Positions 2,246-64,000 of a DNA stretch of 64,000 nt are shown here, one piece after another. Origin of the DNA: Eledone cirrhosa. Lineage: Eukaryota. The notes under the pieces are model-generated. The model saw only the letters and a list, made by a program, of their open reading frames with translations, searched no databases and had not been told where the DNA came from. The stretch's first letter is position 1; every line of letters begins with the position of its first letter. The position numbers and the translations under genes are program-made. The stretch spans positions 7,502,001-7,566,000 of the forward strand of contig OZ024744.1 in NCBI GenBank assembly GCA_964016885.1, in the 5' to 3' direction.

Positions 2246-3290
2246 AGACACATTCCTACTGACCATCCCTCTACCACGAATTACTCTGCTACACACACAC
2301 ACACACACACACATACACTTGTCTTAATAGGCATTTAAACTGTCAACAGGCTGCGGTTCGCACACACATCCCTGCTGACCATTATCACAACAACGAACCT
2401 CTTTACTACTACCACACACACACACACACACACACACACACACACACACACACACACACACACACACACACACACACACACACACACACACACACACACA
2501 CACACACACATATTTGTTGTGAAAGACTTATCTCTCAGTCAGCCGAGACAAACCTACATTTGGCGCAAAATCAATTTTTTACATTCACATGACCTCTACC
2601 GACCAATCAAAATTGTTTTGACCACAAGAGTTTTTGCAACACGAATTGGCGCAAAACTTATTTTAATACCGCTGGAGCCACTTTTTTCACATAAAAACAG
2701 GTAGAATTCCCAAAACTAATCCGATCAGCGCAAACATCACGGACGCTCTATCTCAAAATTATTTTCGAAAAGCATTAGAAATGCGCAACCGATAAAACTT
2801 AAAACAAAAACTTAATACTAACTAATACTATTAATAATTATCACTTATTCCTAATTAATCTATTTTTCAGTGTGAACAATTTGTCAGCATTTTCTATTCC
2901 GTTTACCAATATACATATATATATATATATATATACACACACACTTATATATATATATATATATATATATATATATATATATATATATATATATATATAT
3001 ATATATATATATATACATATATATATATATATATACATATATATACACACATATATATATACATATATATATACATATATATATATATATACATATATAT
3101 ATATATATATATATATATATATATATATTGTTATACTTTTGGAGGGTCATGTTGCCAATAGGAAACACACGCACCAGTTGCTTTCACTTCAATTTATCAT
3201 ATATTTATAAATTTATAAATTTACAAATCTACAAACTTATACATTTCTGGTTGGTTGGTTGGTTCCACAACCAGATATTTGTTTATATAT

Positions 3291-3335
3291 AGTCATAGTC
3301 CTTTCGTCACACACTCTGTGACCTCTTCAGTGACT
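3291..3335 (-). ncRNA. Hammerhead-like ribozyme (family C)
   Basis: rc: AGTCA-CTGAAGA-G-GTCACA gagtg TGTGAC-GAAA-GGAC-TA-TGACT; one extra G before stem II. Confidence 0.75.
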
Positions 3336-3539
3336 GGGGATTCCTTTCTTTGTTTCTGTGCCTATCCTTTCTTCTGTCCTACGCCATTTTGTTTCTGTGT
3401 GTGTGTTGTGTGCTCAGTTTGCGCATGCGCCACATCCGGGTGTCTGTGTGTGTTTGTGTTCATTTATCTATTTGTTTATTTATTTACATGTTGTTGGTTG
3501 GTTTTTTGTTCTATGTGTGTGTGTGTTTTCATTTTGTCC

Positions 3540-3838
3540 TTAATTGTAAGTTTTGATGTTGCTGTTCCACTCATATTTTCTATTTAAGTTTGATTGTAAT
3601 TCTTGTATGCTTACTGCCTCTGTAATTTGCCTAAACATTGCATCTTTTCTGTGTGTGGATTCTATTTTTATTTCTATGTTCTCTAATTTACCCTTGTGTT
3701 CTATCTTAGCATGTTGGTAGAGTACAGATTATTCTTTATTATCTTGAAGGTCTCGCCAGTGTTCATTTATCCGTCCCCCTATACTACGAGCTGTCTCACC
3801 TATGTACACTATATTTTTGTTTCTACATTGTCCTTCAG
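3540..3838 (-). pseudogene. PLE GIY-YIG endonuclease C-terminal fragment (family C)
   Basis: Manual translation: [36 protein letters not shown], with frameshifts. Confidence 0.8.
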
Positions 3839-4391
3839 AGAATTAAGTCATCAAGAAAAACAAAATTAGAAAATATCGGTTTCAACACACGATTTCAGAT
3901 AAAGAATCTTGCTAAACAAATTCAGAAACGAAATATATATATATATATATATATATATATATATATATATATATATATATATATATATATATATATATAT
4001 ATATATATATATATATATATATATATAATATATATATATATATATATATATATATACATATATATATACATATATATATATATATATATATATACATATA
4101 TATATACATATATATATATACACACATATATATATATATACATATATATATATAATATATATATACATATATATATATATATATATTATATATATATATA
4201 CATATATATATATACACACACGTATATATATATATATATATATACATATATATACACATATATATATATACATATATATATATATACATATATATATACA
4301 TATATATATATATACATATATATATATATACATATATATATAAAATAAAGTTAAATAAAAGTCAAATGATTAAAATTTAGCTTCGTTTATT

Positions 4392-4446
4392 ACTGCTATA
4401 TATATTTCAGTGACAGCCATCTTTGGCTGTGACCTCTTCAGGCAGT
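4392..4446 (-). ncRNA. Hammerhead (family A)
   Basis: Reverse complement of 4677-4731. Confidence 0.85.
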
Positions 4447-4676
4447 TTGAATTAGTATGGTATAGACAAGTACATATGTTATTTAGGTGTATGATATTGT
4501 CAATACTCTGATATGCCCAGTTCCTTGTTGGGTTGTTAATTCACTGGGGAACCGGAGTCATATGAATCCAGTTCCCCAGTGAATTAACAACCCAACAAGG
4601 AACTGGGCATATCAGAGTATTGACAATATCATACACCTAAATAACATATGTACTTGTCTATACCATACTAATTCAA

Positions 4677-4731
4677 ACTGCCTGAAGAGGTCACAGCCAA
4701 AGATGGCTGTCACTGAAATATATATAGCAGT
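4677..4731 (+). ncRNA. Hammerhead (family A)
   Basis: ACTGC-CTGAAGA-GGTCACAGCCA aaga TGGCTGTCACT-GAAA-TATATA-TA-GCAGT. Confidence 0.88.
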
Positions 4732-60346: not shown

Positions 60347-60972
60347 ACATAAGAGAGACGTACACATAAAAAATATATTGAAGTAAATAAAAGTAAACAT
60401 TTCATGTATATTTCCCTTTCTCTAGATACTTACTCTTGTCTTTTATGCATCGTCTGTCAATTGAGAATTCTAATTCAATCTCAAAATAATTCGTTTCACC
60501 TATAGTGTAGCTTATTTGCTGCATGGTCAATCGTTAGAACTGTGTATTCAAGAAAACATGTTTGTGTGTGTGAGTGTAAATGTGTACCTATTTTTATGTA
60601 TGTGTGTATGTATATATGTCTGTGTGTGTATGTATATATATATATATACATATATATAAATGTGTATGTGTGTGTGTGTGTATGGCTGTGAAATGGTAAA
60701 AGTAGGTAGAGTCAAGAAGAGAATTCTGATTAAGAAGGAATTACGTCCCTCATCAGAACGTAAGTGACATGATTTAGACAAACAAAATATACATAAATAT
60801 ACATATATATATATACATACATATACATATACATGCATACATATATATATGTATATATATATATATACACACACACACATACATATATATATAAATATAT
60901 ATATCTATATATATATATATATATATATATATATATATATATATATATATATATATATATATATATATATAT

Positions 60973-61253
60973 ATAAGATCAAAAGATGGTTAAAAGACTT
61001 CCATGTATTTTATTATGCGCATTTCAAAAACAAATATCATCATGCGATGACATTTGCGTTTTCATCAGATGAAAACGCAAATGTCATCGCATGATGATAT
61101 TTGTGTTTGAAATGCGCATAATAAAATACATGGAAGTCTTTTAACCATCTTTTGATCTTATATTATTTATACTCCAGTCCTACAACTGTAGAGTGCGACT
61201 TATCCGATATCTGTATTGCTTTATTGTACTACAATAAAACTCACCTCCTACAT
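60973..61253. mobile_element. Family D short fold-back insertion (tail on the right)
   Basis: Palindrome centred on 61068. Confidence 0.9.
61008..61074 (-). ncRNA. Hammerhead (family D) truncated at stem I by the fold-back apex
   Basis: rc: CTGATGA-AAACGCAAATGTCATCG..TGATGATATTTG-GAAA-TGCGCA-TA-ATAAAA. Confidence 0.6.
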
Positions 61254-61953
61254 ATATATATATATATATATATATATATATATATATATATATATATATA
61301 TATATATGTGTGTGTGTGTGTGTGTGTGTGTGTGTATGTATATATATGTATACAACGCATACATACATTCATCTATATATACATACATACATATAAACAC
61401 ACACACACATACATATATATAAACACACAAATATATATATATATAAATATACATATATACAAATAGATCTACAGGAACAAAAGAGGAATAATAATGGCGG
61501 CACCAACAAATAAAAAAACATAAAACATAAGGAAATCCTAAAATGACTACATTTCTCTTGGCGTGAAATGTTAAGTTCCGTAAATCAATAGAAACCAAAA
61601 TAGATTACAATCAAATACTTGTAACCATTTCTTTTCCTCCATTGCAACACCCTCTCCCCCTGTCTCTCTCCTTTCTCACCGTCAATGTACTACCATCTTA
61701 CCCAATGATTTCACACTGAATCACGTCCACGTGCCCAACCAAGATATCATTCATGTATATACATATATATATATACATATATATATATATACATGTATAT
61801 ATATATATGTATATATATATATATATATATGTATATATATATATATATATATATATATATATATATATATATATATATATATATATATATATATATATAT
61901 ATATATATATATACGATATTAACAAATGGAAACTATATTTATAAAACCATATT

Positions 61954-62018
61954 TATTTCATTATACATATTTCAAGGATACCAAGTTAAATTATGGTATG
62001 CCTTCATCAGACAAAATA
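61954..62018 (-). ncRNA. Hammerhead (family Q)
   Basis: Reverse complement of 63829-63893. Confidence 0.82.
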
Positions 62019-63828
62019 CAATATATACCAGTTTTATAAATAAACATTGACGTACCCTTTCAAAATGCAACCGTTACTTTTGGAAGACATCAGGATAGTG
62101 TTTTGTTTATTTTAGTAAGTCATAGTGTTAAGGAGAAGTAAAAAGACGGAGAGAGAAAGTGGAGAAAAGAAAGGGAGAGATAAATAAAGAAAAAGAAGAA
62201 AGAAAAAAGAAAAAAAGAAAACAGAGGAAAACAACAGAGAGATATCAAACCACCAGACAGAGAGAAAAAATCAAGAGAGAGAAATATAGAGATAGAGAGA
62301 GGGGGAGAGAACGAAAACCTTAAGTCATGTCATATTAAGTTGAGTTAACAATTGAGATGAAATGAATAAATAAAATTAGAAATATTAATATTCATGAATG
62401 GAATATACATATATAATATGAGAAATTAATCATTGTTTAGTTATGATTAGATATTTAGTTTAAAAATTGAGATCAATATATTAAAAATTGGAATTTAAAC
62501 ATTACGAAATATATATATTGCTAGAGAAATTACCTATCATATAGCACGTACATATAGGCAAAGATACATAAATATATATATATATACACACACACTCAGA
62601 AAATACACATTATATCTACTCCCGCATATAATATATACATACAAAGCATAAGTGATTTTTTTTTATTACTGCTATACATTCCTTGTGTTATTAAATAAAA
62701 AATGTTAGTATATATATATAAATATATAGGATTAACTTTCATCAATTATGCATATCTGCAATCAAAACTGCATGGGTAACCATGTACATGTACACACACA
62801 ATTCTTAGATATACATATATAAATATGTGTGTGCATCTTCACCCAATTGGTAGCCACGCGTCACTCATGCATATATATAGACAGACATATACTCATAAAA
62901 AAGCATATAACACATGTATATGTATGTTAATACACATATGTAAATACATAGTCGTATAGAGATAAGTATACATCAATATATTACATAGTACAATTGAGTA
63001 TATACAATACAAGAGGATTATATTTTGGAAATATAATTATAACAATATAACTTAAAAACAAAAGAATTCTACAAATATCAAAATATTAAACTATTTTAAA
63101 ATATTATAGAATATTTTAAGCTAAAATAATATGTTTAATAGATTTAGTATAGAAATTTATCTTACGTATATTTTAATCAAGATATTGAAAGGATAAACTT
63201 TTGAAAATTATGAGAAGCTATCAGAATAAAAACAAACCTAATAAAAAATAAATAAAATATTATATCAATATAACTTTAAAAATAAAACAAAAAAAAACAC
63301 GAATTCTACAGATATTAAAATATTAAAATATTTTAAAATATTATAGGATATTTTAAGTTAAAATAATATGTTTAATATATTTAGTATAGAAATTTATATT
63401 ACGTATATTTTACTCAAGATATTGAAAGGATAACCTTTTCTAGAATAGTTTATTATATTTATATTTATATTTAGGAAGAAAATTTATTTATACTTGAGTA
63501 CTTAACCAAAGAAAATGAAAAAGGTGAAGGAATCTAATGATTTATCGACAGGTTTCATATATTAACCAAATTACATAATTAATTATACTACATTTTAAAT
63601 TTATATTTATATTTAAACGTTGAGTTCAATCTATGTCTTCAATCTTTCTTCTTTTTCTTTATTTATCTCTCCCTTTCTTTTCTCCACATTTCTCTCTCCG
63701 TCTTTTTACTTCTCCTTAACACAACGACTTACTAAAATAATCAAACCACAATCCTGATGTCTTCCAAAAGTAACGGTTGCATTTTGAAAGGGTACGTCAA
63801 TGTTTATTTATAAAACTGGTATATATTG

Positions 63829-63893
63829 TATTTTGTCTGATGAAGGCATACCATAATTTAACTTGGTATCCTTGAAATATGTATAATGAAATA
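63829..63893 (+). ncRNA. Hammerhead (family Q)
   Basis: TATTTTGT-CTGATGA-AGGCATACCA..TGGTATCCTT-GAAA-TATGTA-TA-ATGAAATA. Confidence 0.85.
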
Positions 63894-64000
63894 AATATGG
63901 TTTTATAAATATAGTTTCCATTTGTTAATATCGCATATCTACTCCAAATACTTGTCGAGTGCTTTATATCAGTTATAAAAATATTTGCTTGTTGTATCCC

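Follow-up and report, generated by a model that had tools for sequence, protein, structure and literature searches.

How does a mobile element come to leave two copies of its own end, pointing away from each other, with a tail on only one of them? The question is raised by a 64,000-nt stretch of the Eledone cirrhosa genome (assembly GCA_964016885.1, contig OZ024744.1, forward-strand positions 7,502,001 to 7,566,000; hereafter the window), AT-rich eukaryotic DNA that is dense in (TA)n tracts, contains one 200-N gap and holds many insertions of Penelope-like elements (PLEs). The layout itself is known, as inverted arms with a one-sided tail have already been published for PLEs: Craig et al. 2021 (PMC8557442) describe Hydra PLEs with an inverted 5′-truncated copy and a tail that is often confined to one end (Fig. 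2 legend), and name the origin of the PLE tail and inverted repeats as an open problem. An earlier note on this stretch proposed two priming modes per event on opposite strands of a cleaved TA tract, one at an internal microhomology and one at the RNA 3′ end. That each event primes twice, on opposite strands, is supported here, but we think it probable that a single priming mode acts at two tandem signals of the element RNA, one for each target strand. At each signal a short TA run is followed by a bulged hairpin, which we call hairpin 1 at the tail-less end and hairpin 2 at the tailed end. Although the architecture is known, this conserved RNA signal is apparently undescribed.

Insertions were found by self-alignment with microsatellites masked and by direct reading of the sequence, and hammerhead ribozymes were called with a descriptor of our own (24 matches, compared with 0–1 in 20 shuffles used as control). 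All 17 insertions listed in the earlier note were confirmed as head-to-head PLE arms in (TA)n, and the family-fixed end strings it quoted are correct on re-reading. C2 and C3, identical at 719 of 719 aligned bases with a single 6-nt gap, are one tandemly duplicated block, leaving 16 independent insertions. Each of the 16 has one tailed and one tail-less end, for which the probability would be 0.5^16, about 1.5e-5, if ends chose randomly at equal odds. The window features are as follows (open reading frame, ORF; endonuclease, EN; reverse transcriptase, RT).

4341–4881: A1, inverted insertion, tail-less on the left, 98-nt tail on the right; hammerheads at 4441 (minus) and 4682 (plus)
4787–4826, plus: bulged hairpin 1 of family A, 4 nt past the tail-less site
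8290–8814: A2, inverted insertion, layout as in A1
15261–15464: B1, inverted insertion, tail on the left
20375–20567: B2, inverted insertion, tail on the left
35989–36198: B3, inverted insertion, tail on the left
53517–53738: B4, inverted insertion, tail on the left; hairpin 1 at 53565–53588 (minus)
20025–20142, plus: B5, solo tailed arm
3125–3932: C1, long tail-less arm (minus); the right arm is nearly all tail
22676–23166: C2, inverted insertion, tail on the right; ATG-opened frame from 23084 through the tail
23525–24015: C3, tandem duplicate of C2, not independent
53749–55255: C4, tail-less arm (minus) with a putative Neptune-type RT-thumb/GIY-YIG fragment at 54387–55142; short tailed right arm
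5057–5887, minus: D1, solo tail-less arm
26422–28434, minus: D2, solo tailed arm; putative Hydra-clade EN fragment at 27434–28328
60971–61251: D3, inverted insertion, tail on the right; hairpin 1 at 61171–61194 (plus)
6009–8188: E1, tailed left arm (hairpin 1 at 6046–6066, minus), tail-less right arm; putative Hydra-clade ORF fragment at 6637–7716 (plus)
11304–11497, plus: E2, 3′ part of a solo tail-less arm, the upstream part interrupted by F
14516–14848: E3, older inverted insertion, tail on the left
9527–10949: F, left arm with the tail; right arm made up of some 1.8 tandem units of 523 nt
10431 (plus) and 9620–9643 (minus): hairpin 1 of family F
10549–10569, plus: hairpin 2 of family F, 2 nt past the tail-end site, first pair mismatched
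20741–22395: I1, inverted insertion, tail on the right; hairpin 1 at 22310–22354 (plus)
55302–57749: I2, tailed left arm with a putative Hydra-clade EN fragment at 56411–56940 (minus); tail-less right arm
61914–64000: Q, tail-less on the left with no exact overlap, tail exiting the window; hairpin 1 at 63941–63960 (plus)

Tails measure 57 nt in family C, 59 in E, 77 in B, 86 in D, 88 in I, 98 in A and 119 in F; that of Q leaves the window after 67 nt. Hammerheads and ORF fragments place the 3′ ends outward. As the earlier note stated, either arm can be the longer: among 15 measured pairs, whose centres were set by eye so that symmetry is approximate, the tail-less arm is the longer in 4 and the tailed arm in 3, the remaining 8 being symmetric. 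Either arm can also hold the ORF, which lies in the tail-less arm of C4 and E1 and in the tailed arm of I2. In A1, A2, C2, D3, E3 and I1 the two arms of an insertion resemble each other more than they resemble arms of other insertions, whereas those of B3 and B4 are identical both within and between insertions. The tailed arm of C1 consists of the tail and about 6 nt, and the right arm of F reads past the tail end and terminates tail-less.

Some smaller features of the layout were also seen. The central junctions at 15401, 20510, 36132, 53666, 61067 and 22850 (B, D3 and the short arm of C2) fall inside the hammerhead region, and the tail-less site is 57–72 nt away from the B centres, of which two lie within A/T runs. 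Two tiny pieces between TA tracts, a 21-nt D tail end (26200–26220) and a 36-nt E tail-less end (14879–14917), resemble abortive starts. Further solo arms (H, G, K, L and a C-like end), mostly with a hammerhead, lie at 222–498, 13542–13772, 14926–15230, 24484–24597, 25240–25530, 35565–35910 and 57770–57990.

At the tail-less end, element and target share 2 nt in A, 3 in B, 4 in C, 5 in D (3 in D1), 3 in E, 5 in F, 4 in I and 0 in Q. The earlier claim that this end merges with the target at a fixed internal site stands for seven of the eight families, Q having no exact overlap. The summed overlap of 26 nt compares with a null mean of 8.4 (P=6.5e-4, 8 families), and the probability that at least seven of eight families overlap by at least 2 nt is 1.6e-4, the families being related by descent and the trials thus not fully independent. 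TA runs of equal or greater length nearby were left unused, so the choice of site needs something beyond microhomology.

In all seven families other than C, a bulged hairpin of 20–45 nt lies 2–7 nt 3′ of the tail-less junction. It has the form RYUC, variable upper stem, 2-nt UH bulge, GARY and then RCU, with a chance occurrence of 7e-4 per 10-nt window. The strict form was matched in 1 of 2 tails in A, 4 of 5 in B, 2 of 2 in D, 1 of 2 in E, 1 of 2 in F, 2 of 2 in I and 1 of 1 in Q. RNAalifold, unaided, returned the identical fold, with compensatory changes at 6 of 8 pairs. In the named structure 93.9% of cells are paired, compared with 15–51% in slid controls; none of 500 shuffles scored as high, a test inflated by sequence relatedness. 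Pairs 3–5 are kept in all 22 hairpins compared, each family and site being taken once; pair 5 is C-G in 11 and U-A in 11, and 3 G-U against 0 A-C cells favour the RNA strand. Rfam gave no match at gathering scores for hammerheads and hairpin alike, and the 150 of 292 matches listed in an E-value scan held only microsatellite or palindrome matches to microRNA models. With relaxed criteria, a search of eight other hammerhead arms showed a weak form of the hairpin in L and a questionable form at 13.7 kb; C, G, H and K had none. Family L has a GUUC/GAAC hairpin directly past the hammerhead cut site.

The hairpin recurs outside the window. Scanning GTDB genome contigs for Hydra-type ORFs gave 14 loci (L001–L014), presumably animal host DNA inside bacterial assemblies, which we searched with the window-derived descriptor unchanged. 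Because the MAFFT alignment of these hairpins was out of register, pairs were counted on structure-anchored positions that we set. Among 23 outside hammerhead calls, 11 reach TA-type repeats first and 1, in an ORF, was set aside; all 11 remaining read-through arms carry the hairpin, 9 in strict form and 2 with one mismatch. The strict hairpins begin 41–62 nt past the hammerhead cut. Of 14 outside hairpins, 9 are preceded at a distance of at most 8 nt by the end of a TA run of at least 4 nt (null mean 1.0; 0 of 200000 draws). At L010 the overlap with the target is 3 nt and lies 5 nt before the hairpin. By eye, six Hydra consensus sequences in File S7 of PMC8557442 hold the motif in full in three cases, in part in two and not in one; one L010 family resembles, and is thus not independent of, Hydra-2_Amil. 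Animal-type Penelope elements in contigs of several public bacterial assemblies suggest host contamination of those assemblies.

The outside loci also carry two hairpins. Both are present in all four loci with an intact 5′ untranslated region (UTR; L002, L005, L008 and L009), spaced by 62 nt in L002, 65 in L005 and 63 in L008, and an in-frame ATG follows hairpin 2 by 38–48 nt in L002, L008 and L009. Outside tails measure 62–66 nt in 5 of 6 cases and 72 nt in the sixth. Spacing matches tail length; the tail is the first part of the 5′ UTR and would be the interval between the two signals. Two copies read through the tail end and reveal what follows it. In L009 the tail end overlaps a TATA target 4 nt before hairpin 2; in family F it overlaps a TAT target 2 nt before hairpin 2. 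In both cases the tailed end has the same anatomy as the tail-less end, which argues against priming at the RNA 3′ end.

In the mechanism we favour, the Hydra RNA would bear, past the hammerhead, two tandem start signals, each a short TA run with a bulged hairpin 2–7 nt further on. The endonuclease would cut both strands of the TA tract, and each cut 3′ end would pair over 2–5 nt with a TA run, the adjacent hairpin binding and positioning the extending RT. A start at signal 1 would give the tail-less end and a start at signal 2 the tailed end. Two RT copies could act on one RNA, one per hairpin and target strand; with one signal 1 and one signal 2 per RNA serving opposite target strands, one end of each kind would result, and the two complementary DNAs (cDNAs) would then be joined head to head. 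RT starting from signal 2 would have to traverse hairpin 1 and strip off the first cDNA. Several tailed arms indeed end there, at or within hairpin 1 or site 1 (C1, L010 at 6310, the left arm of L007 and the 5′ end of L009). Alternatively, two RNAs might be held asymmetrically, which would give the same end count and would agree with the unequal arms of E1, B1 and I2 no less well than one RNA does.

Both hairpins lie 3′ of the ends that they specify, and copies ending at either site lack hairpin 2 at their 3′ end, so that making an ORF-bearing arm would call for an RNA template that is circular or multimeric, or for a jump from the 5′ pseudo-long terminal repeat (pLTR) to the 3′ one. Circular templates have been proposed in PMC4209133. 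Short symmetric arms could be run-offs to a common RNA 5′ end.

Several observations weigh against this reading. The hairpin motif was derived post hoc from the window, and folding of whole tails did not exceed the shuffled level in six of the seven families (z −1.5 to +1.2; family A, −2.3). Family C follows the layout, yet a relaxed search found no hairpin in it. The tail-less end of Q has 0 overlap, or 4 nt on the assumption of one C>T change, and outside the window the overlap is 1 nt in L004a and 0 in the degenerate target of L006. Only F, with its mismatched hairpin 2, and L009 are read-through copies at the tail end. In E1, B1, B2 and I2 the arms are no closer within than between insertions; those of E1 are 85.7% alike, each being at least as close to E2, so E1 may represent two separate events. 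Solo arms of the same families, tailed in B5 and D2 and tail-less in D1, E2 and the 36-nt E piece, make the one-of-each layout not the sole outcome. Outside the window, 6 of 7 head-to-head pairs with both ends visible have one end of each kind, but all six come from one assembly and three from one family, and L007 is apparently two-tailed, in a non-TA target. Excluded from this count were a pair at L004 (1218/5013) that resembled a no-tail insertion, ambiguous because both its ends run into a common flank of about 200 nt, and inversions in L001 and L005 whose ends are not visible. The rarity of two-tail and no-tail insertions that the earlier note expected is thus borne out by the paired arms of the window and all but one outside pair, and is qualified by L007 and the solo arms.

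The main rival, which we consider unlikely, is endonuclease resolution: hairpin or tail would be read as DNA, and the GIY-YIG enzyme would cut its own intermediate at a nearby TA before joining to the target, the TA overlap being a cutting preference and not a trace of priming. Such resolution is the origin to which PMC8557442 ascribes PLE tails, it accounts for TA in both element and target, and PMC11167929 reports that endonuclease recognition required the tail in D. virilis. By contrast, covariation implies a single-stranded structure, with the slight G-U bias pointing to the RNA strand (3 vs 0), solo tail-less insertions exist (D1, E2 and L011), and in the anole system of PMC11167929 both sites are RT starts.

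Priming of one strand at the RNA 3′ end, as the earlier note had it, would explain why tail ends are family-fixed; a minor product primed off the 3′ end is reported in vitro (PMC11167929), and the F tandem junction could in principle reflect a jump onto it. We nevertheless find this improbable, as the tail ends of F and L009 lie internally, share bases with the target and come before hairpin 2, the sequence past the tail end continues into an ATG, and tail length matches hairpin spacing. An equally poor prospect is fold-back, in which the tail-end cDNA would fold on itself, be copied back and anneal to the other target end at the TA by hairpin 1. The 8 symmetric pairs of 15, the 3 with a longer tailed arm and the private variants usually common to both arms agree with it, and it might account for some symmetric copies, but it cannot yield longer tail-less arms (C1, C4, E1, F and L010 6408–7091) or solo tail-less arms. 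An assembly or library artefact through fold-back chimeric reads in TA-rich DNA, to which the exact C2/C3 duplicate and the 200-N gap might point, is barely credible as a source, as the arms differ by substitutions, the asymmetry is family-fixed and the same layout occurs in an unrelated assembly and in the literature.

Priming at two tandem signals has partial parallels in known systems. For Poseidon PAc of the green anole, Frangieh et al. 2024 (PMC11167929) report that both strands are extended in vitro from two internal sites bounding the tail, with a predicted dimer. Both strands are cut and extended in that system, as is proposed here, from a stem-loop start downstream of the hammerhead. 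Whereas the PAc starts are described there as non-homologous to the target, inside the ORF and at one AC-rich stem-loop, a difference that also counts against our reading, each site here is TA-complementary, has its own conserved hairpin and lies in the 5′ UTR. A PAc-type start, with RT beginning on sequence non-homologous to the cut DNA, was considered as a candidate and is contradicted by the 2–5 nt overlap in 7 of 8 families.

The Adineta vaga Penelope (Arkhipova et al. 2013, PMC3846280) likewise has inverted pLTRs and an optional one-sided tail that continues the ORF start, as that of family C appears to do. It differs in its 31-bp tail and visible target-site duplications, and its account in the part of PMC3846280 used here describes no microsatellite targeting. 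In the window any target-site duplication would be masked by (TA)n. Tandem non-LTR retrozymes (PMC7229834; bioRxiv 2026.07.22.740005) resemble F, with its tandem 523-nt units, a hammerhead in each and no ORF; unlike them, the F unit also has both hairpins and the PLE end layout.

In L1 twin priming, the element RNA is primed by both strands of the target, with an inversion as the result; the arms copy non-overlapping parts, and the second priming site is opportunistic. Here, by contrast, the pLTR copied is the same in both arms, and the two starting sites are fixed. Telomerase RNA, for its part, has a template boundary element. The element RNAs resemble telomerase RNA and the Athena elements, as presented in the introduction of PMC8557442, in having a short stretch complementary to a simple repeat beside structured RNA and a related RT; they differ in that an endonuclease is carried, insertion is internal, kilobases are copied and the hairpin lies 3′ of the template run. 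More tentatively, Hydra PLEs could use a telomerase-like module twice, a repeat-complementary run with an RT-docking hairpin, so that one RNA would serve two RTs on cut (TA)n. If true, such 'overlapping twin priming' would account at once for the inverted arms, for the tail and for its presence on one side only, and the ORF could then be copied only from a circular template or through a strong-stop jump like that of retroviruses.

The terms hairpin, stem-loop, bulge and microhomology are absent from the main text and text supplement of PMC8557442 in a term search, and no earlier description of a twin hairpin was found in the literature searched, the 2004–2006 Penelope papers and Repbase notes being outside its scope. 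The fixed distance from hairpin to junction provides mutable cis-elements and exact predicted start sites, testable by the published in vitro assay. Priming at these signals would link target choice to RNA–DNA pairing in the closest mobile relatives of telomerase and would point to a compact signal by which RT-based insertion could be directed into TA repeats, and the hairpin would serve as a marker for ORF-less Hydra copies and their ends.

Which PLEs are these? The Penelope identity given in the earlier note, with its inverted pLTRs and tails, is upheld by ORF motifs, hammerheads and the published layout. By motifs, D, E, I and K are assigned to the Hydra clade: their ORF pieces have a C-terminal GIY-YIG domain after RT and thumb and a CxCx5C linker (CNCx5C in D2, I2 and K, degenerate in E1), and the endonuclease is without the CCHH cysteine pair, with CxxC and CxH flanking conserved E and N. 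Pfam detects GIY-YIG weakly in K (E=0.0014, under the curated cutoff) and not in E1 or D2. Among full-length homologues, the best (P0002, P0003 and others) have RWK and DKT motifs, the window copies all being 5′-truncated. The pLTR arms contain the predicted hammerhead, of which B arms, read by eye, have the 3′ half only; insertion is into (TA)n across families, and the tail end of E3 abuts (CA)n. The C-terminal GIY-YIG without the CCHH pair, CxCx5C, CxxC/CxH, hammerheads and (TA)n targeting are all shared with the Hydra PLEs of PMC8557442, whose supplement lists an Octopus Hydra family; tails are 57–119 nt here and 30–40 nt there. A, B, F and Q have no ORF within the window and are assigned to Hydra by hammerhead, TA target and common hairpin only. 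A Naiad PLE, with an N-terminal EN and no canonical hammerhead, was rejected, since here the EN follows the thumb and hammerheads are present.

Family C is, from its translation, a Neptune/Nematis-type PLE, the two types not being separated: C4 has a CX2-5CxxC linker and two cysteines inside GIY-YIG, and over 89 amino acids the family peptide shares 74% identity with a protein of Octopus vulgaris, a match that by itself would make an octopus the probable host. The tail of family C contains an open frame with an ATG. The tail peptide scored at best 36 against 150 relatives, inside the shuffled range; anchored against the N-terminus of the top match it gave P=0.03 in a single post hoc test, which suggests that the tail is perhaps coding.

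At 32865–35517, family K has a minus-strand Hydra arm with an EN ORF, head-to-head at about 35140 with a plus-strand piece that spans the RT thumb and ends inside the ORF, a possible exception to the fixed ends. This junction could reflect either L1-like internal priming or a later deletion. Variant hammerhead cores, CAGAAGA and CCGAAGA, occur in I and K.

Other repeats adjoin the insertions. Beside the end of E2, at 11498–11945, a 97-nt flank resembling a short interspersed nuclear element is present as an inverted duplicate (99%) across TA tracts, with a 23-nt direct copy; L004 has a similar inverted flank (961–1171/5341–5520). A different repeat family of about 600 nt, mostly in direct copies, occupies (TACA)n/(TA)n at 19495–19814 and 36756–45631, interleaved with fragments of a non-LTR RT and restriction-like endonuclease (38385–38782 and 41167–46727) that we take to be R4-like. 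A broken non-LTR element on the minus strand at 29268–31755 (RVT_1, E=1.6e-29) is presumably RTE-like. Starting about 80 nt past the tail-less end of B1, a minisatellite of 149 copies of a 23-nt unit, with 91% matches, spans 15544–18979.

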